A stretch of DNA of 64,000 bases, taken from Acidobacteriota bacterium (GTDB lineage Bacteria; Acidobacteriota; Thermoanaerobaculia; Gp7-AA8; JAHWKK01). Below the pieces are notes generated by a model. The model saw nothing but the letters and a program-made list of their open reading frames with translations, was not told the origin of the DNA and did no database searches. The translations under genes and the position numbers were made by a program. The stretch lies in NCBI GenBank assembly GCA_019347945.1, contig JAHWKK010000001.1, positions 67,299 through 131,298 of the forward strand, in the 5' to 3' direction. The first letter of the stretch is position 1, and the number at the start of each line of letters is the position of its first letter. Positions 1,076-12,189 of the stretch are shown one piece after another.

Positions 1076-2167
1076 TCAGGCGTGGACCAGGATCTCCCGC
1101 TCCTCGATCCAGTCGGGCCAGCGCGCAATGTCGAGCTGCGTCGTGACAGTCCAGGTCAGACTGTTGCTCGACGCATAGAATGACGGTGACGCGTCCGCCG
1201 GGATCCGGATCGATGCGCCTTCGTTGAATGGCATGTTCGGAGAGAGCGTTCGTGCGCCCGCGACGTTCAGCTGCTGCTCGAAGACGACGTGGCGGTGCGT
1301 GGTTTTGTTCGTGCCGGAGCCGCTGACGACGATCTCGGTCGCCACAACCTTCGCGGTTGCGCCGTTGAGCTCCACGGGGTTCTCCGGCCGGCAACCGATG
1401 CTCACGCGAACCTCTTCGCCCGCCCGGATCAGTGCGGGCTCGACCGTGAGCTTCACCTGACCGAGTTTCTTCCGGGCGACCATGTTCCGGACTACCTTCA
1501 GGAGGATACCGAGGAACAGCGCGATGACCACGAGTCCCCCGACCCCCCACATCAACGCTTCGATGAGTGCGACCTCCCCTCTCGTGAACCCGATTCCCTG
1601 CCGGACCGCCGCCCCCAAAATAAAGACCAACGGTCCCAGAAAAACGAAGAGACAGCCAATTGCCACGAGGTTGCCGACCCAGCCACCCGATATTGTGGGC
1701 GCTGCGGCCGCTCCGCCGGAGGTCTGTTCCTTCAGTTTGGCAGGCAGATACGTTTCCGAGCCGGCAGCGGTGAGCCAGTTTGGTTCCGCCTCCGGGTTGG
1801 GTCTCAACACGACTTCCTCTTCCACCCTCGGATCGATCGCCCAGGGAATATCGGCGGTCGCGTAGACTTCCCAGACGACGTTCAGGAGGGTGCCGTGGTA
1901 GGTGTAGGGGCCTGCCGGAAACTCGAATGCGAAAGGGCGCCGGAAAACCGTACCGGCGGTCCATTCGCCTTCGAAAAGCGTCTCGAACACGATCCTTTCG
2001 GTAACACTGTTGCCCCTGCCGTGGGTGCGCCATCGAAGTCCGACCTCGAGTCCGTCGCACCGGACGTCCTTGTCGATTCGCACGTCGATGATTCCGCGCA
2101 CGGTCTCGCCCGGGCGGAAAGTATTCTTCCCTTCATCCAGATGCAGTGTCAGATCACATTTCGCCAT
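1076..2167 (-). CDS. Membrane protein with two arrestin-like (Spo0M-family) beta-sandwich domains flanking about four TM helices.
   Basis: 363 aa. The N-terminus, MAKCDLTLHLDEGKNTFRPGETVRGIIDVRIDKDVRCDGLEVGLRW, matches the Spo0M/arrestin-N pattern. A central hydrophobic block runs from GGWVGNLVAIGCLFVFLGPLVFILG to LVVIALFLGILL. The C-terminal LTVEPALIRAGEEVRVSIG segment is a second such sandwich. It overlaps the upstream ATPase gene by 19 nt. Confidence 0.6.
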   Translation of the reverse strand: MAKCDLTLHLDEGKNTFRPGETVRGIIDVRIDKDVRCDGLEVGLRWRTHGRGNSVTERIVFETLFEGEWTAGTVFRRPFAFEFPAGPYTYHGTLLNVVWEVYATADIPWAIDPRVEEEVVLRPNPEAEPNWLTAAGSETYLPAKLKEQTSGGAAAAPTISGGWVGNLVAIGCLFVFLGPLVFILGAAVRQGIGFTRGEVALIEALMWGVGGLVVIALFLGILLKVVRNMVARKKLGQVKLTVEPALIRAGEEVRVSIGCRPENPVELNGATAKVVATEIVVSGSGTNKTTHRHVVFEQQLNVAGARTLSPNMPFNEGASIRIPADASPSFYASSNSLTWTVTTQLDIARWPDWIEEREILVHA

Positions 2168-2889
2168 TGCGTCTCCTTCTCGCTGCTGCGCAGCATGTTC
2201 TGATAGTCCTCGTAGAGCTGGTCGAGCAGCGAGCGGAGATCATCGCCGTATTGTTCGACGAGATCGCGGGCGATGGCGCGGCTCATCACCGGCAGGGATC
2301 CGTCACCCGCACGCGCCCGCTCCAGCCTTCGGCTCACGATCTCGAGAAGCAGGTCTTCATCGAGCCCGCTCACCGTGATCGTACGGCTGACCAGACCCTT
2401 CGCGCGCAGTTCGTCGGTCAGATCCTCGTGACTCGCGAGCACGAGTGTCGCACCGGTACGACGGGCCTCGCGAAAGAGCCGGCGGCGCCGGCGCCGTGGC
2501 AGGCGCTGTGCTTCGTCGAGAAGAAGAGCCGGCCCACCCCCCGGTCGGGCCTCGAGGCGGGGGAGCGAAGGTAGGGGCTCGTCTTCCGCGAGATAGACGT
2601 ACGGGGCGCCGCGGAAGCGCCTCTGCAGCAGCCGGAGACGGGCTGTCTTGCCCCGGCCAGCCTCCCCCAGAAACTGGAGAACTGCTCGCGGTTTAGCCAG
2701 CCAGTCGAGCAGTTCGGCTTCGTTCGAAAGTACGATGAGATCGCCCACGACATCCAATGGCGGCTCACCGAACGGGTTCCGGCGGAGATTGAGCCGCGAC
2801 CAGGGAGACACCTCGCCGCGCATGACCGGGGAGAGTAGCACGGCAGCGGCCGTTCCGGGTGCTCGATCTGAACCGGGAGCGGGCGACAC
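2149..2889 (-). CDS. ExeA/GspA-like P-loop NTPase, a small AAA-type ATPase.
   Basis: Walker A is FLGEAGRGKTARL and Walker B is ALLLDEAQRL. The NPFGEPP lead-in resembles the ExeA/AAA_16 N-terminus. The true start may be the internal MRGEV at 2823. Confidence 0.6.
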   Translation of the reverse strand: MSPAPGSDRAPGTAAAVLLSPVMRGEVSPWSRLNLRRNPFGEPPLDVVGDLIVLSNEAELLDWLAKPRAVLQFLGEAGRGKTARLRLLQRRFRGAPYVYLAEDEPLPSLPRLEARPGGGPALLLDEAQRLPRRRRRRLFREARRTGATLVLASHEDLTDELRAKGLVSRTITVSGLDEDLLLEIVSRRLERARAGDGSLPVMSRAIARDLVEQYGDDLRSLLDQLYEDYQNMLRSSEKETQWRNVI

Positions 2890-2910
2890 CTCCGCCAGGA
2901 CGGCGGGGCG

Positions 2911-5181
2911 TCAGTTCCCCTCGAGCACACGCGCCTCGATCGAACGGAACCGAGGGGTGTGCCGGATCGGGTCCCATGCCGCGTCGACCCTGAGGAAGGC
3001 GAGATGAACCTCACGCTCCTCCAGCGCCCTGTCGAGTCGGTCGAGCGCCGCGTCGGTGCTGCCGAGGACGCTTTCGATCCTCGCCACCAACGTCTGGGGT
3101 ACGTAGCGTGGACGTGGCGGTTTGTCGAGCCGCCGGATCGCCTTCGATGCGCCGGCTCGCTTCCCCCACAGCGCGTAGAGCTCCGCGAGCGCGACCTCGA
3201 CTTCCGGATAGTCGGATCTTTCACGAGAGAGCGCCTGCAGCTCGTCATGAGCCTCTTCGAACATTCCCTGTCGCGCCAGTGCCAGCGCCAGAACGATGCG
3301 CGCTCCGGCCGCGGAGCTTCTCTGGATCAGCGTCCGATGCCCGTGCTCCTGTGCGTCGATCCACCGCCGCCCGAAGTAGAGCACTCGTGTCGCGCGCTCG
3401 CCCAACTCCGGGTTCAGACTGTCGAGTACGACCGCGCGTTTGGCGTCGACGACCGCCTCGTCGGGCCTCCCCACGCAGACCAGGATCTCGGCACGGCTGA
3501 TCAGGCTTTCGGGCGATTCCCGAAGGCCGGAGACGATGGTCAGTGCCTGTTCCCACTTCCAGTCCATGAAGGCCCGCATTCGAGCGCAGGCCAGCTTCGT
3601 CTCGTCGCTCGGGTGAATCGCTTCGGCTCTGGAAGCCTCGGAGAGCGCTTGATCTCGAACCGCGGATGTGGGAGCGAAGCCATTCAGTGCTTCCTGAAGC
3701 CGGGCTTCGGCCAGTCTGGCGTGCCCGAGCGCAAATGCAGGCATGCTCGTCACCGCGCGTTCGAGCGCTTCGATCGCGCGTCGAAAGCCGCTGCTGGTTC
3801 CTCGCGAAAGATCGCTGCGCACCGCTCCGAGGATCTCGACGGTTTCGCTCGAAAGCTCCGGCTGCGAGGTCATCTCGACGGTGGCATCGACCGCCGGTCT
3901 GCGAAACGGGAGGTGCGGGCCGAGCGTCTTCACGATGTTCGAGATCAAACCTTCGATTGACGCCTCGCCGGTATCGACCAGACGTTCTCGTCCGCCCCAG
4001 ATCTGTGCGCCGCGGGAAGTATCGATCAGCTGGAGCTGCACGAGAACGGAGCCCGAAGATCTGCGAATCGAGCCGGCGATGACGAGCGTGGCCTCGAGCG
4101 CAGATCCCGCCTCTTCCGGATCGGGTCGGGCGCCAAGCTTTCTGATCCGGCTGCGCGCGACGACCTCCAACGCCGTCTCGTTGGCGAGCCGGTTCTGAAT
4201 CTCCTCGGCGACGGTCATCCCGACCGATTCCAGCTCGGGATCCTCATCCGGCGTCTCCAGATCGAGAACGGCGAGCGTTGCGCGTCCCCGCTTCCTCACG
4301 ACCGGCAGGTAGCCGGAGAGCGTCTCGTGATCCCCTTTCAGAAGCGCGTCGAGGGCCGATCGGAGCTCTTCTCCCTCCGGAAACCGATCCTCGACGTTCT
4401 TTTCGAGACTCTTCATCACGATCGACTCGAGGTCCGACTGAATCGCTGCGTCGATGGCCGGCAGGGGTCGCGGCTCTTCCTTCATGATTGCGTGCATCGT
4501 TTCGGCCGCCGTCTTGCGCGCAAAGGGTCTCGAGCCGACCAGCATCTCGTAGAGCACGCAGCCGAGCGAGAAGATGTCGCTCGCAGGCCCTGTCTCTTCT
4601 CCGGCAGCCTGTTCCGGCGACATGTAACCGACCGTGCCGAGAACAAAGCCTGCCGGCGTTTTCACGATCGTCTGTTCGGTGCTGTTGATCTCCCGCATGG
4701 AGGTGTCGAGCCGCGCAATGCCGAAATCGAGCACTTTCGCTCCGTGTACCGTCAGGAAGATGTTTTCCGGCTTGATGTCACGATGCGTGATTCCGCGGGC
4801 ATGTGCGGCCGCAAGAGCACGCGCGACGTCGAGCGTGATCCTGAGCGCCTCGCGGTAATCGATCCTTCTTTCATCTCCGATGCGCTCCCGAAGAGTCTGT
4901 CCTTCCAGCAGCTCGGTCACGACGTAGCGTAGGTCTCCGTCGTGCCCTACGTCGAAAATCGAGACGATGTGCGGGTGGGAGAGGGCGGCGACCACCTTCG
5001 CTTCCCGCTCGAATCGCTCGAGAACGTCCGCGCGGGAGGTGAGGTGGGGCGAGAGCACCTTGACCGCGACGTCCCGGTCGAGCCGGGAATCATGAGCGCG
5101 ATAGACCTCGCCCATACCCCCCGCACCGAGCAGTCCCTGGATTTCGTAGGGACCGAGCAGTGTGCCTGACTCAATCGGCAT
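2911..5181 (-). CDS. Hanks-type Ser/Thr protein kinase with a C-terminal TPR-like repeat region.
   Basis: Kinase motifs are GxGxxG (LLGAGGMGEVY), VAVK, HRDIKPENIFL, DFGIA and GTVGYMSPEQ. The C-terminal roughly 450 aa are alpha-helical repeats. The start was chosen at MPIESG. Alternative upstream ATGs exist at 5217 and 5268. Confidence 0.85.
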   Translation of the reverse strand: MPIESGTLLGPYEIQGLLGAGGMGEVYRAHDSRLDRDVAVKVLSPHLTSRADVLERFEREAKVVAALSHPHIVSIFDVGHDGDLRYVVTELLEGQTLRERIGDERRIDYREALRITLDVARALAAAHARGITHRDIKPENIFLTVHGAKVLDFGIARLDTSMREINSTEQTIVKTPAGFVLGTVGYMSPEQAAGEETGPASDIFSLGCVLYEMLVGSRPFARKTAAETMHAIMKEEPRPLPAIDAAIQSDLESIVMKSLEKNVEDRFPEGEELRSALDALLKGDHETLSGYLPVVRKRGRATLAVLDLETPDEDPELESVGMTVAEEIQNRLANETALEVVARSRIRKLGARPDPEEAGSALEATLVIAGSIRRSSGSVLVQLQLIDTSRGAQIWGGRERLVDTGEASIEGLISNIVKTLGPHLPFRRPAVDATVEMTSQPELSSETVEILGAVRSDLSRGTSSGFRRAIEALERAVTSMPAFALGHARLAEARLQEALNGFAPTSAVRDQALSEASRAEAIHPSDETKLACARMRAFMDWKWEQALTIVSGLRESPESLISRAEILVCVGRPDEAVVDAKRAVVLDSLNPELGERATRVLYFGRRWIDAQEHGHRTLIQRSSAAGARIVLALALARQGMFEEAHDELQALSRERSDYPEVEVALAELYALWGKRAGASKAIRRLDKPPRPRYVPQTLVARIESVLGSTDAALDRLDRALEEREVHLAFLRVDAAWDPIRHTPRFRSIEARVLEGN

Positions 5182-5297
5182 GCGACGGAGTATAACTTCG
5201 GGGAAGATTCGCATTCGCGGGGCTTGACAGATGGCGATCCCAGGTGTATTAGTACAGCAGTACAGCAACTCACCTCGAAGGAAGGATCCGGCAATTC

Positions 5298-5699
5298 ATG
5301 TTCAGCATCAATCCGGGAGACGCCGTCCCGATCTGGAAGCAGATCGAGCAGGAGATGCGGAGACTTCTCGCGATCGGCCGCCTCTCGCCCGGCGAAGCTG
5401 TACCGAGTGTGCGGGAGGTGTCGAGGGAGCTTCGCGTCAACCCGGCGACGGTTCAGAAGGCCTACCAGCGGCTCTGCGACGAAGGATTGTTGATGGTTCG
5501 CCGCGGAGAGGGAACCTTCGTGGAGGTGCAGCCGGCGAGGCTCGATGGGGCGCATCGCCGGGAAGAGCTCCACGACGCTGCCGTGCGGTATGCCAGTCTG
5601 GCAGCGACGATCGGTGCGACTCCGGCGGAGGCGCAGGGGATAGTGACCAAGGAAATCGAACGAGTCATGAAAGTGGCACAAGGGAGGCGAAATGAGTGA
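5298..5699 (+). CDS. GntR-family transcriptional regulator, short YtrA-like subfamily.
   Basis: The sequence is LSPGEAVPSVREVSRELRVNPATVQKAYQRLCDEGLLMVRRGEGTFV, a winged-HTH GntR signature. The protein is 133 aa and is followed by an ABC transporter, as in ytrA loci. An RBS aaggaagga lies upstream. It diverges from the kinase gene. Confidence 0.85.
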   Translation: MFSINPGDAVPIWKQIEQEMRRLLAIGRLSPGEAVPSVREVSRELRVNPATVQKAYQRLCDEGLLMVRRGEGTFVEVQPARLDGAHRREELHDAAVRYASLAATIGATPAEAQGIVTKEIERVMKVAQGRRNE

Positions 5700-6618
5700 T
5701 CACAACGGAGCTGAACCCGTTCTCGAGCTCGAGGGTCTGAAGGTCCGCTACGGCAAAATGATCGCGGTCAACGACATCTCCATCCGCGCCGAAGAAGGGT
5801 CGGTCTACGCGTTGCTGGGCCGGAACGGAGCGGGAAAGAGCTCGATCGTCCGCTGCCTGCTCGGATTCCAGAGGCCGAATGGTGGCGAGGCGCGGCTATT
5901 CGGCGAATCAGTGTGGAAAAAGCGCGCGAGCCTGATGGACCGGGTCGGCGTGGTTCCGGAAGACCCCGATGCACCGCCCGAGATGAAACCGCGCGAGATT
6001 CTCGAGTTCTGCTCGCGCCTCTATTCGAAGTGGGATCACGACACGGCGATCTCGCGGCTCGACCGGTTCAGAGTTCCGCTGAATACTCCCTTCGGAAAGC
6101 TCTCCAAGGGACAGAAGCGCGAGGTCCTTCTCGCCGCGGCTCTTGCGAGTGAGCCGGAGCTCCTGGTGCTCGACGATCCGACGCTCGGGCTCGACGTCGT
6201 AGCTCGAAAGGAGCTGTTCGAAGAACTGATCTCGGACCTCGCGGATCGGGGGACGACCGTCTTCGTCACGACCCACGACCTTCCCGGAATCGAGGGAATC
6301 GCCGATCGCGTCGGCATCATGCTCGAGGGCGACATGCTGGTCGACGAGGACCTCGAAGCGTTGAAGTGGCGTTTCCGCCGGATTCGCTTCACTGCGGGTG
6401 GCCAGACGAGCGACCAGATCGATCTCGGCTCTCTTCATCCAGTTTTGAGGAAGCGGTGGGGAACGGGGGTCGAGGTCGTCGTTGACAATTACTCGGAGGA
6501 TCGGCTCGACGAGCTCCGAACGAAATCGGGTATTGCCGAGATCGAAGTCAATCCCCTGTCACTCGAAGACATTTTCATCGCGGTCGCCGAGGCCGACCTA
6601 GTGAGGGGCGCGTCATGA
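5692..6618 (+). CDS. ABC transporter ATP-binding protein.
   Basis: Walker A is LLGRNGAGKSS, the ABC signature is LSKGQKREV and Walker B is LLVLDDPTLGLD. It overlaps the GntR gene by 8 nt. Confidence 0.9.
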   Translation: MSDHNGAEPVLELEGLKVRYGKMIAVNDISIRAEEGSVYALLGRNGAGKSSIVRCLLGFQRPNGGEARLFGESVWKKRASLMDRVGVVPEDPDAPPEMKPREILEFCSRLYSKWDHDTAISRLDRFRVPLNTPFGKLSKGQKREVLLAAALASEPELLVLDDPTLGLDVVARKELFEELISDLADRGTTVFVTTHDLPGIEGIADRVGIMLEGDMLVDEDLEALKWRFRRIRFTAGGQTSDQIDLGSLHPVLRKRWGTGVEVVVDNYSEDRLDELRTKSGIAEIEVNPLSLEDIFIAVAEADLVRGAS

Positions 6619-8465
6619 AAAATCTCCTGCTCGTCATTAGTCGAGAACTGGTCGAACGGAAAATGCTGATGATTGGTGCTTTTGCGATCGGCCTGGTCAT
6701 TCTGGCCGTTCCCCTGGTCACCCGCGCACCGGCAAGAGATACCTGGAACATCGCGAGCCTGTACCTGCCGATCATGCTCGGCCTGGGGATCGCTGGTTTT
6801 GCCGCATCATCGTTCGTCGCGAGCGATCTGCGAGAGCAAAGACTCTCGTTCTTCCTCGGGCGTCCGCTGTCGACGGCGAGCGTGTGGGGAGGAAAGATGC
6901 TCGCGGCGTGGCTTCTCGCGATCCTCTGTGCGCTTCTGGTCCTTCTGCCCGCGACTGTGGTCGGCAGCGGGCTGATGTTCTGGCTGACAGCGGGAGAGGG
7001 TGGGCCGATGATGCTCGTGATGTCTCTGGTGGCGTCGGCAGTGATCATCCCCTTCGGCCATGCAGCGGGAGTGGCGCTCAGGGCCCGGTCTCCATGGCTT
7101 CTGGCGGACTTCGTCGCGCTTGCTCTGTTCGGTCTCGTGACGGCAGCGGCGCTCCGCCCCTTGTTTCATCAGTACGCCTTCCGCCTCGTCTACTCGACCA
7201 TTCTCGTGTTGGCGGCGTTTCTGACGGTCACGCTTCTGATTGGAGGATATGTCGGTCTGTCACGCGGTCGGATCGACCTGCGCAGCGCTCACGCGCATCA
7301 GTCGATGATCTCGAGCGGCGCTCTGATCGCTCTCGGCATCGCGGTATCCCTTTTCGTCGTCTGGGTTCGCTCGGTCGATGCTGAGGACCTGACCGAGTTC
7401 CGGCTGATGCCCTGCGTGACGGATTGCGAGCCGATGTTGGTAGGGACTTCCCGCGGGCGGGGAGACTATCGAGCCCATTTTGCGATGAGCGGCGAAGGGT
7501 TCCGTCAACTCGACTTTGCAAGTGAAGTCGGGCAGGCGTCGGATCGGGGCCGGACCGTCTGGCTGTCGGCCGAGTCGATCGAGCCGCCGACGGCTCGTGT
7601 CGGATACCTCGATCCCGGGATGGAGCGATCCGTGCGAACGAACATCCTGGCGCACCCGTACAACTCCTGGATCGCCGTCTCACCCGACGGCGAGCGGCTC
7701 GCGATCGCTGAAGACAGAACGCTTCAGATATTCAACCTCGATGAGGAAAGGGTGATCCGGACGGTTCGTCTCCCGGACGCAGCGGACTCGAGCTTCAGAG
7801 TATGGTTCCTGAACCAGGATCAGATTCTCGTTCTGACACCCCCGGCGGGGAGAGGGCCACTATCACCTGAGGGAGGCCGCAGCACCGGTTGGACCGGCGT
7901 GGTCGCCGACGTCGAGTCCGGCGACACGCGCGAGGTGGAATTTGCGACATATCCGCACGCGATCGATTCCGACCGCGGATTGCTGATGTTCGAAGACGAG
8001 AGTGAGATCACCGTATACCGCGCCGGCTCGTCGGAGCCGTTATTCACGACCGAGGGGACGAGCGCCGTTTCGACTTCTCACGGCGTTTTCGTCACCCGCC
8101 CCAGGAGCCGCCAGGTCGCAGTCGTCGATCCTGGCAGCGGGACCGAAAGAATCTATCCGCTGCCCGCCGACGTCACCGATATCGCGCTCGGGCCGGCCGA
8201 CGAGGAAAGCATGATTCTGGGCCTTACCCGCAGAAGCCAGTTCCAGCGATGGTCGTCGAGCGTTCCCAACGGAGCGCGACTCGTACGGCTCGATCTGACG
8301 ACTGGCGAGCTCGAGGAAATGGAGGAAGGTATCGTCCCGGCGCGGGCATACCAGCCCGGGATCTCGGGACCCTACTTCCTCCGGGATACCCCCTCCGGGA
8401 TGCAGCTGATTCGAATCGATCCGGGTAGCAGCGAAATGACCGTTCTCGCGGGCGGGACGGCGTAA
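6615..8465 (+). CDS. ABC-2-type permease fused to a C-terminal periplasmic beta-propeller-like (TolB-like) domain.
   Basis: 616 aa. The N-terminal roughly 250 aa have about six TM helices and a conserved FFLGRPLSTASVWGGK motif. The C-terminus carries repeated SPDGERLAIA-type blades. It overlaps the ATPase gene by 4 nt. Confidence 0.7.
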   Translation: MKNLLLVISRELVERKMLMIGAFAIGLVILAVPLVTRAPARDTWNIASLYLPIMLGLGIAGFAASSFVASDLREQRLSFFLGRPLSTASVWGGKMLAAWLLAILCALLVLLPATVVGSGLMFWLTAGEGGPMMLVMSLVASAVIIPFGHAAGVALRARSPWLLADFVALALFGLVTAAALRPLFHQYAFRLVYSTILVLAAFLTVTLLIGGYVGLSRGRIDLRSAHAHQSMISSGALIALGIAVSLFVVWVRSVDAEDLTEFRLMPCVTDCEPMLVGTSRGRGDYRAHFAMSGEGFRQLDFASEVGQASDRGRTVWLSAESIEPPTARVGYLDPGMERSVRTNILAHPYNSWIAVSPDGERLAIAEDRTLQIFNLDEERVIRTVRLPDAADSSFRVWFLNQDQILVLTPPAGRGPLSPEGGRSTGWTGVVADVESGDTREVEFATYPHAIDSDRGLLMFEDESEITVYRAGSSEPLFTTEGTSAVSTSHGVFVTRPRSRQVAVVDPGSGTERIYPLPADVTDIALGPADEESMILGLTRRSQFQRWSSSVPNGARLVRLDLTTGELEEMEEGIVPARAYQPGISGPYFLRDTPSGMQLIRIDPGSSEMTVLAGGTA

Positions 8466-8474
8466 GGAAGAACC

Positions 8475-10376
8475 ATGGTGCGAGACATTCTGATCATTGC
8501 TGCCCGCGAGATTCGTGACAAGAAGATCCTCTTCCTCGGAGCTGCGCTCTGTGCGCTGATCGTTCTCGGAACGCCGCTGCTTCCCGGCGCTAGCGGAGAG
8601 AGTCCAACCGACGTGATGACCACGGCCGCGCTCACGCTCTTTCTGGTCGTGATGTTCGCGACGCCGGCGGCGCTCGGGTTCGGCATCATCGGGCGTGACC
8701 TCGAAGAGCATCGGATGGCGTTCTATCTGGCGCGACCGGTCAGCACCTCCTCAGTGTGGAGCGGAAAGACCCTGGGGGCTGTTTGCATCACCTTCGGGCA
8801 GGCGGCGATCATCGTTCTCATTCCCACACTGCTCGGCAAAGGTCTTCTCTCGTTTGGCAACTACGCTGCTACGGTCGGTTTCGAGAGCTTCCTGCTGAGC
8901 TCGTTTCTGAGCTCACCATTGAGAAACTCCATCCTTGCGTCTCTGCTGGTTCTCGCGCTTGCGCAGTTCTGGGCTCTCGGGTTGCGCTCGCGATCAGCAT
9001 GGCTTCTCCTCGACCTGGCGGTCTTCGCGACGGTCGCGACGATCTTCTGGATGAGCCTCCGGCCGTTCCTCCTCAACGGCGCGGAACCGGATGCAGTCCT
9101 CTTCACCTCGATCTCACTCGTCATGCTGGGAATCCTGTTGTTCGCCGGGAGCGCCGCAGGACTGCAGCTCGGGCGCAGCGACCTCCATCGAACCCATCGA
9201 TGGACCGGCATCGTCACCGCCGCTCTGTTGCTTGCAGGATTTCTCGCTCTCGGAATCCTCTCGCACCAGATTCGTTCGCTCGAGCCGAACGAGCTCGAGT
9301 ACACCTCACTCATCGCCGCTCCTAGAGAGGGGCCATGGATCGCACTCGAGGGGGCGAGAAACCGGGAGTGGAATTCCTACCGGGCGTCCTACCTGATCAA
9401 CACCCGGACCGGCAGGTCGGTGAACATCGGCAACAGTAACCCGTCAATCAGCCGTGATGGAACGATCGCCGCGATCTGGAAGCGGGAAACGCTCAATCCT
9501 CCAGTCGCACGGCTTCACTGGATCGATCTGAAAGAGCCAGACGAATTGAACCACACCGACGTTTCGATTCCTCTCGAGGCGAGGGATGATTGGAGATTCG
9601 TCCTGTGGCCGTCGCTTGCAATCTCTCCCGCCGGCGGGCGCGTGGCCTGGCTAGATCGAGGGACTGTTCAGGCCTGGGATCTTCGAAGCGCCACGAGTCT
9701 GTTCAGCGCGAGGCTTCCCGACGAGGATGCCAGACCCAGGGTGCTGTTCGATGGAGAAGACGATCTCTACGTCTTCAGCCGTCCGGCCGGAGACACCGAA
9801 GGCCAGTGGACGATCAGGAAAATCGACTTCGAAGAGAAGTCGTGGGCGATCACCGGGACAATGCCGGATGGTTGGTTTGGCCACGTCGAGGCGGGCGCTC
9901 CGCTACGCTTCACGAGGCGCCCCGCGGACGACGATATGGAAGGCCCGCGGGTCCATGAGCTTCGCGACATCGAGGATGGGTCCGTCATATCGAGCTTCAC
10001 CGCGAGGGGGCGATTTCTAAGCGATGGCCGTTTCGTGGAGATGAGTGGTGAGAGCGGAGCCGCGCTTCGGATTCTCAACCGGGAAGGCGAGCTCGAGAAA
10101 ACGATCGAGCTGCCGCCGGAGGGCACCCCCGTCGGCGCTGCTCAGGTCAGGAGCCAGATGCTCACCGTCCGGCTCGTCCCGGGCCGTGATTACCGCAACG
10201 GAAAGGACTACCTGGTCGATCTGGAGACATCGAAGGTCCGTCAGATAGATTCCGCTTTGCATGTCGTGCATCCGGCGTCCGAATCGGAAAAAGACATCAT
10301 TGTCAGCGACGGGCGGAGCCTCTTTCTCCTCGACCTCGAGACAATGAAGACCGAGCGGATCGCCGGCAGGGGCTGA
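8475..10376 (+). CDS. Paralogous ABC-2-type permease with a C-terminal beta-propeller-like domain.
   Basis: 633 aa with the same architecture as the preceding gene. The matching motif is FYLARPVSTSSVWSGK, and the C-terminus has SRDGTIAAIW and SPAGGRVAWLD blades. Confidence 0.7.
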   Translation: MVRDILIIAAREIRDKKILFLGAALCALIVLGTPLLPGASGESPTDVMTTAALTLFLVVMFATPAALGFGIIGRDLEEHRMAFYLARPVSTSSVWSGKTLGAVCITFGQAAIIVLIPTLLGKGLLSFGNYAATVGFESFLLSSFLSSPLRNSILASLLVLALAQFWALGLRSRSAWLLLDLAVFATVATIFWMSLRPFLLNGAEPDAVLFTSISLVMLGILLFAGSAAGLQLGRSDLHRTHRWTGIVTAALLLAGFLALGILSHQIRSLEPNELEYTSLIAAPREGPWIALEGARNREWNSYRASYLINTRTGRSVNIGNSNPSISRDGTIAAIWKRETLNPPVARLHWIDLKEPDELNHTDVSIPLEARDDWRFVLWPSLAISPAGGRVAWLDRGTVQAWDLRSATSLFSARLPDEDARPRVLFDGEDDLYVFSRPAGDTEGQWTIRKIDFEEKSWAITGTMPDGWFGHVEAGAPLRFTRRPADDDMEGPRVHELRDIEDGSVISSFTARGRFLSDGRFVEMSGESGAALRILNREGELEKTIELPPEGTPVGAAQVRSQMLTVRLVPGRDYRNGKDYLVDLETSKVRQIDSALHVVHPASESEKDIIVSDGRSLFLLDLETMKTERIAGRG

Positions 10377-10491: not shown

Positions 10492-12189
10492 TCAGAAGGT
10501 CACTGTGACGCTGTTCGAGCAGGTCGAGGTTCCTGCTTCACAGATCTGGTACGTCAGCGAGCCGCCTCCGACGAAGTTGGTCGCATCGGTGTACGCTCCG
10601 TCGTTCGCCGTCGTCGCAATCACCGATCCGTCGCGGTACACGTCCACATTCGTGGAGCTCGCTCCGCTCCAGCTCAGATCAGTATGCCAGCGGCCTTTCA
10701 CCTTGTATCCGGTGGCCGAGAGCGAGATGCCGTCGGTCGAGCAGCCTTCGTCGACCGAACCGTCGCAGTCGTTGTCGATGCCGTCGCCACAGACCTCGGT
10801 CTCGCCAGGGTTCACGCCCGCGTTGCTGTCGTCGCAGTCGCCATCCTCGGCGCACCATCCGTCACCGTCGGCGTCCGTGCAGGTCGAGCAGCCTTCGTCG
10901 ACCGAACCGTCGCAATCATTGTCGATGTTGTCGCCGCAAACTTCCGACGCGCCTGGATTGACGCTCGCATCATTGTCGTCGCAATCATCGCTGGCGCAGT
11001 AGCCGTCACCATCCGCATCCGTGCAACCGCTTCCGCCGTCGAAGAGGGTGTACAAAAGGTGGTTGTTGGTCGTGCTGGACGAAGTGACGATGTTCTTAGT
11101 GGTCGCGTTGTAGAGCGCATCGCGAACCGTCTGCGGAGAGGCGCCGGAATTCGCGTCGAGATAAAGCGCCGCAGCTCCCGCCACATGCGGAGCGGCCATC
11201 GAGGTTCCACTGATCGTGTTCGTGTCGCTGTCGCTGTCGATCCAGGCCGATGTGATGCTCACACCAGGCGCGAAGAAATCGACGCAGTCGCCATAGTTCG
11301 CCCAGGAGGCTTTCTTATCGGAGCTGTCTGTGGCGCTGATCGTCATCGCTTCCGGAACGCGGGCTGGCGAGTAGTTGCATGCGTCCTGCTGGATCCCGAG
11401 GAAGTTGCCGTTTCCGGCCGCGATGGCGTAACTCACGCCCGCCGCGATCGAGTTGCTCACCGCGCTGTCGAGCGAGTCGGACGCGCCGCCGCCGAGACTC
11501 ATGTTCGCCACGGCCGGCTTGATGTGATTCGCGGTCACCCAGTCGACTCCCGCGATGACGCCCGAGACCGTGCCGCTTCCCTGGCAGTCGAGAACGCGAA
11601 CGGCGATCAGCTTCACGCTTTTCGCCACGCCCCAGGTCGATCCACCGACGGTTCCGGCCACGTGCGTACCATGACCGTTGCAGTCATCGGCCGTTCCGCC
11701 GTCAATCGCGTCGAAACCGCTGACGGCCCGGCCCCCGAAGTCATTGTGCGTGGTACGGATTCCGGTGTCGATGATGTAAGCATTCACCCCGGAGCCGGTG
11801 TGATTGTAGGTATAGCTGCCGTCGAGCGGGAGGTTTCGCTGATCCACACGGTCCAGCCCCCAGGTCGCATTCGACTGGGTCGCGACGACGCGAACCATCG
11901 AGTCCTGTTCCACGTATGCGACTCGAGGATCGGCAGCCATTTTCTCCGCCATCTCTGCGGACAGGCGTATCGAAAAACCCTTGATCGCCGATGAGTAAAT
12001 ATAGCCGATCGTTCCGGCGTGGGTGGAAGCCAGCGCTCTGGCCTCGGCTGCCGGATTCGCGACGTCGTCGTTGAACACGACGATGTACTGGCCCGGAATT
12101 GGATTTTCTGTCTGCCGGACGTCCGGACTACCGAGTACCGAGAACGCCATCAGACAACATATTGCCGCTACAAACAGGTTTCGCTTCAT
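10492..12189 (-). CDS. Secreted subtilisin-like serine protease (S8, proteinase-K-like) with an I9 propeptide and C-terminal Cys/Asp-rich repeats.
   Basis: The signal peptide is MKRNLFVAAICCLMAFSVLGSP. The catalytic triad context is D (AYIIDTGI), H (HGTHVAGT) and S (GTSMAAPHVAG). The C-terminus has two 50-aa repeats, CTDADGDG[YW]C...VNPG..EVCGD.IDNDCDGSVDEGC. Confidence 0.9.
   Translation of the reverse strand: MKRNLFVAAICCLMAFSVLGSPDVRQTENPIPGQYIVVFNDDVANPAAEARALASTHAGTIGYIYSSAIKGFSIRLSAEMAEKMAADPRVAYVEQDSMVRVVATQSNATWGLDRVDQRNLPLDGSYTYNHTGSGVNAYIIDTGIRTTHNDFGGRAVSGFDAIDGGTADDCNGHGTHVAGTVGGSTWGVAKSVKLIAVRVLDCQGSGTVSGVIAGVDWVTANHIKPAVANMSLGGGASDSLDSAVSNSIAAGVSYAIAAGNGNFLGIQQDACNYSPARVPEAMTISATDSSDKKASWANYGDCVDFFAPGVSITSAWIDSDSDTNTISGTSMAAPHVAGAAALYLDANSGASPQTVRDALYNATTKNIVTSSSTTNNHLLYTLFDGGSGCTDADGDGYCASDDCDDNDASVNPGASEVCGDNIDNDCDGSVDEGCSTCTDADGDGWCAEDGDCDDSNAGVNPGETEVCGDGIDNDCDGSVDEGCSTDGISLSATGYKVKGRWHTDLSWSGASSTNVDVYRDGSVIATTANDGAYTDATNFVGGGSLTYQICEAGTSTCSNSVTVTF

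Follow-up and report, generated by a model that had tools for sequence, protein, structure and literature searches.

Results

Organization of the locus

We analyzed a 64,000-nucleotide stretch of a genome from an Acidobacteriota bacterium (GenBank assembly GCA_019347945.1, contig JAHWKK010000001.1, positions 67,299 to 131,298 of the forward strand; hereafter the window, whose numbering is used for all window coordinates), focusing on three minus-strand genes near its start that encode a membrane protein, a P-loop ATPase and a Hanks-type Ser/Thr kinase. The original prediction had described the three as a translationally coupled operon that might act as a single module. The open reading frame (ORF) listing confirmed the three genes, their positions and the 19 nt shared by the ATPase and membrane-protein genes, and comparison with related loci showed that the ATPase and the membrane protein, which has an arrestin fold, form a robust and autonomous two-gene cassette to which the kinase does not belong. 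The principal features are as follows.

1076–2167, minus strand: gene for the arrestin-fold membrane protein, 363 residues (ORF; identical to P0001)
2149–2889, minus strand: gene for the AAA+ ATPase, longest ORF 246 residues from a GTG start (ORF)
2911–5268, minus strand: gene for the Hanks-type Ser/Thr kinase, 785 residues from a TTG start, with a TPR-like C-terminal half (ORF)
2149–2167, minus strand: overlap (19 nt, ATGGCGAAATGTGATCTGA) of the end of the ATPase gene and the beginning of the arrestin gene, preceded by GGAG (sequence)

The distance between the kinase stop codon and the GTG of the longest ATPase ORF is 21 nt, not the 22 nt given previously. However, the NCBI model of the ATPase (P0121) has 230 residues and starts at the GTG at 2841, and similarity to homologues sets in only near residue 24 of the longest ORF, close to the ATG at 2823; judged from these alignments, the real start is likely to be one of these two codons rather than the longest-ORF GTG. 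Because of this uncertainty, the spacer between the kinase and ATPase genes spans 21–87 nt. The proposed translational coupling thus holds for the ATPase and arrestin genes, which overlap, and do so across phyla (see below), whereas it is not established for the kinase and ATPase genes. A simple promoter and terminator scan returned one promoter-like and one terminator-like site, both within coding sequence and at or below shuffle expectation, with no terminator-like site between kinase and ATPase.

The membrane protein has a two-lobed arrestin fold

The expectation that both the N- and C-terminal regions of the 363-residue protein resemble arrestins was borne out by profile matching, structure prediction and structural comparison. 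The protein matches Pfam Arrestin_N at 27.0 bits (gathering score 24.9), with relatives scoring up to 65 bits (L027; loci are designated by L and proteins by P numbers), and gives a weak, sub-threshold match of 17 bits to Arrestin_C. An AlphaFold (AF2) model calculated with 37 homologues as input is of high confidence (predicted local distance difference test score, pLDDT, 91.8; predicted TM-score 0.82) and consists of a β-sandwich (residues 4–121), a low-confidence linker, two helices (163–195 and 201–235) and a second β-sandwich (239–362). When the model was compared with the PDB using Foldseek, all of the top 50 matches were arrestin-fold proteins, at probability 1.00 and with both lobes aligned, led by Vps26 (5f0l_B, E 2e-15), the α-arrestin ARRD-6, TXNIP, β-arrestins and Rgp1. 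Homology is also evident between the two lobes (hhalign probability 94.7%, E 6e-8, 112 columns), and their alignment pairs the conserved motifs WRTHGRGN with VSGSGTN and DIPWAxDP with DIxRWPDW. The resulting domain layout is given here.

1793–2167, minus strand: N-lobe β-sandwich, residues 1–125 (model; motifs MxKC, WRTHGRGN, PxGPxTYHG and DIPWAxDP)
1463–1681, minus strand: transmembrane (TM) helical hairpin, residues ~163–235, at the inter-lobe hinge (model helices and hydropathy)
1079–1462, minus strand: C-lobe β-sandwich, residues 236–363 (model; motifs ExxVSGSGTNxTTH, PxDAPPSF and DIxRWPDW)

The model and the hydropathy profile agree on two TM helices arranged as a hairpin, preceded by the low-confidence linker (residues ~122–162), instead of the four or so envisaged originally; two hydrophobic segments were likewise present in the family members scanned. 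Most members carry 3–6 Lys or Arg residues directly after TM2, the loop between the two helices is short and weakly charged, the protein lacks a signal peptide and the N-lobe begins at residue 1, so an N-in/C-in topology is indicated and, given the position of the hairpin at the inter-lobe hinge, both arrestin lobes are therefore expected to be cytoplasmic and tethered through that hinge. Taken together, the modeling shows a two-lobed protein of arrestin/Vps26 fold, anchored by a hairpin, with both lobes predicted to lie on the cytoplasmic face of the inner membrane.

The protein collection holds 308 homologues. Conservation is strongest in the loops of the cytoplasmic lobes, where the invariant columns are W46, T48, G50, P87, G92, N96, D106, P108, W109, D112 and P113 (N-lobe) and E278, G283, G285, T286, P323, N335, W339 and D352 (C-lobe), and weakest in the TM hairpin. 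Near-invariant C4 and C37, with C35 in most homologues, lie at the start of N-lobe strands 1 and 3, and these cysteines may make a disulfide bond or bind a metal. Some planctomycete members are longer, at 504–586 residues (P0045, P0043, P0080 and P0100; loci L016, L023 and L027, for example L027:8001-9761), and add a Pro/Ala-rich linker followed by a conserved C-terminal domain of ~110 residues with the motifs YG.ERD, RNGRT and WN..YDR, which has no Pfam match.

The partner is a stand-alone AAA+ ATPase

Depending on the start codon, the ATPase comprises 224–246 residues. The following catalytic motifs are present.

2644–2667, minus strand: Walker A, GEAGRGKT (G59, G62, G64 and K65 invariant in 40 homologues)
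2506–2526, minus strand: Walker B, LLLDEAQ, followed by an invariant Arg (D109, E110 and R113 invariant)

Across the family, GxxGxGK of Walker A and DE of Walker B are invariant, as are R113, H138, R172, R203 and Y210, and an N-terminal NPF motif is conserved. The AF2 model (pLDDT 92.3) has an AAA+ α/β base and a helical lid, after which the protein ends, and the highest hydropathy over 19 residues is 1.06. In Foldseek, the best matches were the T4 clamp loader gp44, Hda, DnaA domain III, RFC and the AAA+ modules of Lon and ClpB (E 6e-6 to 1e-4, TM-score ~0.5). The most apt description of the protein is thus a minimal, stand-alone AAA+ ATPase of the clamp-loader/initiator structural type. It shares the base-plus-lid architecture of Hda, DnaA domain III and the clamp loaders RFC and gp44, and Hda is of similar size (~230 residues); we also take the N-terminal PWxRLNLRRNPFGE to resemble clamp-loader box II (PWVEKYRP), and GDDLR the sensor-2 motif. 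In contrast to those proteins, it has no sequence-level membership in their families, as a PDB sequence-profile search gave generic P-loop matches only (best E 0.0017), it has no DNA-binding or clamp-binding context, and it is encoded with a membrane protein.

The earlier assignment to a minimal ExeA/GspA type was correct as far as a P-loop, AAA-type ATPase with the motifs GEAGRGKT and LLLDEAQ is concerned, but membership in ExeA/GspA was rejected. The window protein scores 20.3 bits against AAA_22, below the cut-off of 27, and hhalign aligned it with Escherichia coli GspA over only 31 columns of the P-loop (probability 30%). Sub-threshold Pfam similarity in the family is spread over AAA_22 (29 of 40 members), AAA_16 (16 of 40) and, in some members, nSTAND and NACHT. 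Like the cassette, GspA–GspB of the type II secretion system pairs an ATPase with a membrane protein; however, the window ATPase lacks the TM segment, C39-like domain and peptidoglycan-binding domain of GspA, and no type II secretion genes lie adjacent to the cassette. "ExeA-like" is therefore acceptable as a loose superfamily pointer only.

The ATPase family comprises 101 homologues, and searches of representative clusters returned 472 at E ≤ 1e-30, a number that rises to 858 when the threshold is relaxed to 1e-10. No fusions that would indicate a partner by the Rosetta-stone principle were found in the best 150 representative matches, all of which are stand-alone proteins of 158–284 residues.

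The ATPase–arrestin pair is conserved without a third gene

Conservation of the locus was assessed with a motif-seeded genome scan (DIPWAxDP pattern, one genome per species) that yielded 67 loci: 23 from Planctomycetota, 25 from Myxococcota, "Deltaproteobacteria" and Bradymonadales, eight from Gammaproteobacteria or other Pseudomonadota, four from Acidobacteriota, one each from Elusimicrobia, Lentisphaeria and Verrucomicrobia, and four unclassified. The pair thus spans at least six phyla, with the cassette concentrated in Planctomycetota, Myxococcota and Acidobacteriota. Among the 63 full-length arrestin copies for which 900 nt or more of upstream sequence was available, 45 have the ATPase gene directly upstream and co-oriented, and ORF-level phmmer and hmmsearch comparisons place an ATPase homologue in 48–50 of the arrestin-bearing loci. 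The genes overlap in 44 of 54 pairs, by 14 nt in 27 of them and by 19 nt in eight. In the 14-nt class, the TGA stop of the ATPase falls within the Cys4–Asp5 codons of the conserved MSKCDL start of the arrestin protein; the 19-nt class is the acidobacterial clade, which includes the window. A Shine–Dalgarno-like GGAG is often found upstream of the arrestin start. In keeping with the linkage, pairwise distances of the ATPase and arrestin proteins are correlated (r = 0.64, a value reached by none of 2000 permutations).

The linkage also withstands rearrangement. In L041 the gene order is reversed and the linkage kept, and in L075 the arrestin gene is split and circularly permuted, with a 197-residue TM-plus-C-lobe gene followed by a 133-residue N-lobe gene (L075:5647-6645, minus strand), convergent with a distant ATPase homologue, P0220 (L075:5001-5681, plus strand). 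Downstream of another ATPase homologue, the 314-residue P0202, only a short single-lobe arrestin-like ORF was detected (L077:5938-6361), which may represent either a reduced form or a copy in decay. The metagenome-assembled genome RFHU01 bears both a linked (L053) and an unlinked (L008) copy. Compared with linked copies, unlinked arrestin copies are somewhat less conserved at C4, N53, N96, T290, N335 and W353; the differences are modest, giving a weak hint from sequence that these may be partner-contact residues.

All-versus-all clustering of the ORFs in the 67 loci revealed no conserved third gene. Besides the arrestin and ATPase genes, it recovered only scattered kinases and ABC ATPases and an ORF that is an antisense shadow. 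Among the 109 immediate neighbors, each Pfam family occurs at most four times, the commonest being arrestin paralogues. The ATPase and arrestin genes therefore recur as a unit of their own.

A compact NTPase and membrane-protein pair with a patchy distribution, a different context in nearly every genome, local paralogue expansions and, in some ATPase members, weak AAA_16, nSTAND or NACHT-type similarity invites comparison with anti-phage or abortive-infection systems, in which the NTPase would sense infection and the TM hairpins of the membrane protein would oligomerize and damage the membrane. Several findings argue against this: the identified neighbors are ordinary metabolic, transport and regulatory genes, there is no meaningful PADLOC signal among the 109 of them and no defense island, PADLOC-DB v2 contains no family matching either protein at E ≤ 1, and no homologues were found in 72,556 plasmids, 50,697 phages or IMG/VR contigs. 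Moreover, a membrane-damaging effector is not what is suggested by a family in which the hairpin, rather than the cytoplasmic lobe loops, is the part under least constraint. A role in defense is conceivable, but we have down-weighted it and regard it as improbable.

The kinase is a lineage-specific neighbor

The kinase is as described originally, a eukaryotic-like kinase with a long TPR tail. The Pkinase domain (E 3.5e-47) covers residues 41–296 and contains all of the catalytic motifs, GAGGMG (GxGxxG), VAVK, HRDIKPEN, DFG and SPE; since the domain begins only at ORF residue 41, translation probably starts at the ATG at 5181 or 5214. Single Pfam TPR matches in the tail are sub-threshold, whereas NCBIfam TPR_END_plus scores 38 bits (cut-off 32), and no TM segment was detected by hydropathy. 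Matches to the PADLOC models PD-T4-6 and mad6 arise through the generic kinase domain only.

The proposal that kinase, ATPase and arrestin protein are conserved as a triad did not survive the neighborhood comparison, in which only the ATPase–arrestin pair was co-conserved. In the closest relative, L069 (82% identity), the upstream gene is subtilase-like and not a kinase, and none of L070, L072 and L001 (55–57% identity) has a kinase of this type beside the cassette; their neighbors are a histidine kinase–GGDEF protein, a divergent carboxyltransferase operon or HD-domain genes. Elsewhere, the upstream genes encode GH127, an ABC transporter, a TonB-dependent receptor, HrpB, a σ54–FHA activator, a K+ channel or an amidase. 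Across the 67 loci a kinase is the immediate neighbor twice, against 1.7 expected from the local kinase density of 1.4% of genes (P ~0.5). Only the planctomycete locus L007 has a co-oriented upstream Hanks kinase, whose non-catalytic region is unrelated to that of the window kinase. Because none of the kinases neighboring the cassette in other loci is homologous to the window kinase over its C-terminal half, the juxtapositions are independent. We therefore rejected the kinase as a conserved partner: it is a lineage-specific local neighbor outside the conserved module, possibly co-transcribed with it, and may add lineage-specific regulation to the cassette.

These comparisons bear directly on the idea of a signaling operon working like a G-protein-coupled receptor kinase and its arrestin, with the kinase phosphorylating a membrane client, the hinge or the ATPase, and the arrestin protein reading the phosphorylation. 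Eukaryotic arrestins do bind phosphorylated clients, the window genes are co-oriented across a spacer of 21–87 nt with no terminator-like site in it, L007 repeats the arrangement, and single loci carry a PP2C phosphatase (L065) or an FHA–σ54 activator (L051) upstream. Nevertheless, the absence of the kinase beside the cassette in the closest relatives, the chance-level neighbor count, a C-terminal half shared with no neighboring kinase and upstream genes that are otherwise mutually unrelated largely refute the triad as a conserved system. We rate such an operon as quite unlikely, although lineage-specific wiring of this kind could still occur.

Relation to known arrestin-clan proteins

With the functional unit thus narrowed to the ATPase and the arrestin-fold protein, the latter can be set against its structural relatives. 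It resembles the eukaryotic Vps26, α-arrestin (ARRDC, TXNIP) and β-arrestin proteins of Pfam clan CL0135 in having two tandem homologous β-sandwich lobes, but its sequence identity to the matched structures is only ~10%. Unlike the soluble cytosolic arrestins, whose hinge is short, it has a ~40-residue linker and a two-TM hairpin that make it an integral membrane protein, and it has an AAA+ ATPase as its dedicated partner. We know of no retromer, clathrin, ubiquitin-ligase or G-protein-coupled-receptor partners in these bacteria. Spo0M is soluble and has one arrestin-like domain and a different C-terminal domain; the window protein, by contrast, fails the Spo0M model (PF07070) and has two lobes, a TM hairpin and an ATPase partner. 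The arrestin clan includes the arrestins, Vps26 and the bacterial and archaeal Spo0M, the only prokaryotic branch recognized earlier (PMC2515105); the occurrence of this fold in a bacterium is therefore no novelty on its own.

That Spo0M is a known bacterial member of the clan (PMC2515105), that NCBI names P0001 a "sporulation protein", and that many relatives carry PF07070 in precomputed Pfam annotation ("faint" in encoding-contig listings; several reach 26–33 bits against the Spo0M hidden Markov model, cut-off 23) might suggest a membrane-anchored Spo0M-type stress or developmental regulator with an unrelated, or merely co-expressed, housekeeping ATPase, but this is the least probable of the explanations considered, as the window protein has no Spo0M match even at E ≤ 1, the hosts are Gram-negative non-sporulators, and the gene overlap and rearrangement-resistant linkage favor a dedicated partner over incidental co-expression.

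Other genes in the vicinity

The kinase gene diverges, as originally described, from a GntR–ABC module.

5298–5699, divergent from the kinase: GntR regulator
5692–6618, divergent from the kinase: ABC ATPase, following the GntR regulator

These are followed by two paralogous membrane proteins of ~620 residues (6615–8465 and 8475–10376, plus strand), one with a weak match to ABC2_membrane_3 and the other without a match; together the four genes look like an unusual large-permease ABC export module. Further along, at 10492–12189 on the minus strand, lies a gene for a secreted subtilase (Peptidase_S8 with an I9 propeptide) that bears MopE-type putative metal-binding motifs and whose C-terminal region is ChitinaseA_N-like. 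A 304-residue ORF antisense to the arrestin gene (1289–2203, plus strand) recurs in 37 loci as if "conserved", but it only shadows that gene in high-GC DNA and was rejected as a real gene.

Signaling genes of the cyclic-di-GMP type flank the cassette in two acidobacterial relatives, one of which has a histidine kinase–receiver–GGDEF protein (L001/L002:4670-7285) and the other HD_5 proteins to either side (L072:4609-5241 and 7161-7760); these are too few cases for an association.

Discussion

We consider the functional unit to be, with reasonable though far from complete confidence, a self-contained, translationally coupled cassette in which an AAA+ ATPase switch acts on a hairpin-tethered arrestin-like adaptor. 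The ATPase gene product, of ~215–230 residues with base, lid and intact Walker A and B motifs, would serve as a nucleotide-dependent switch or assembly factor, and the two proteins would assemble into a stoichiometric complex at the membrane. The role of membrane-tethered adaptor or scaffold would fall to the arrestin-like protein, whose conformation, oligomeric state or partner binding the ATPase would control. Clamp loaders, Hda and DnaA are ATP-gated assembly switches rather than unfoldases, and by analogy an unfoldase activity of the ATPase appears unlikely. Within the adaptor, the Trp-rich loop DIxRWPDW would be membrane-proximal, since TM2 ends three residues ahead of the first C-lobe strand and the strands run up and down; by pseudo-symmetry, DIPWAxDP of the N-lobe would also face the membrane. 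The Gly-rich hairpins THGRGN and SGSGTN would then face the cytoplasm, where they might bind the ATPase or a client.

Several observations weigh against this interpretation. Physical interaction between the ATPase and the arrestin protein is itself inferred, and the assignment of loops to the membrane or the cytoplasm should be taken as one from strand order, not from coordinates. The correlation between the pairwise distances of the two proteins fits co-evolution or a shared species phylogeny alike. As the scan used DIPWAxDP as its pattern, the sample is biased toward copies that keep this motif. Finally, 18 full-length arrestin–TM copies have no adjacent ATPase, including tandem arrays of two or three paralogues (L028:5533-9026, L019 and L043); the arrestin protein can thus be present with no ATPase encoded in cis.

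A further step, which we offer as speculation with little chance of holding in full, is that the ATPase–arrestin cassette is a prokaryotic device for the sorting or turnover of membrane proteins, in which the arrestin/Vps26-like adaptor picks up clients from the membrane or the cytoplasm and the AAA+ switch drives its cycle. It would then be a bacterial counterpart, and possibly an evolutionary relative, of the eukaryotic arrestin-type trafficking adaptors, linked to Ser/Thr phospho-signaling in a few lineages, including this one.

The original view that the combination does not correspond to a described module still stands. Literature searches on bacterial arrestins with AAA+, operon or immunity terms found no description of a two-lobed arrestin with a hinge TM hairpin and an AAA+ partner, the matches being false positives from "arresting", and Pfam, NCBIfam and PADLOC contain no specific model for the ATPase or the 363-residue protein. 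The cassette is real and uncharacterized, while the pairing of kinase and arrestin, the most eye-catching element of the locus, is unsupported. For the arrestin–TM family, the NCBI label "sporulation protein" is misleading.

Arrestin-clan proteins are central to membrane traffic and receptor signaling in eukaryotes, whereas in bacteria the clan has been known only through the poorly understood, soluble Spo0M. The family described here constitutes a distinct and well-conserved branch, with at least 300 protein clusters in at least six phyla, that is two-lobed, membrane-integral and partnered by an AAA+ ATPase. With two genes, a predicted 1:1 expression, clear catalytic residues and cultured hosts that include Persicimonas caeni and Plesiocystis pacifica, the cassette is experimentally tractable, and it could show what roles arrestin folds had prior to eukaryotic trafficking.

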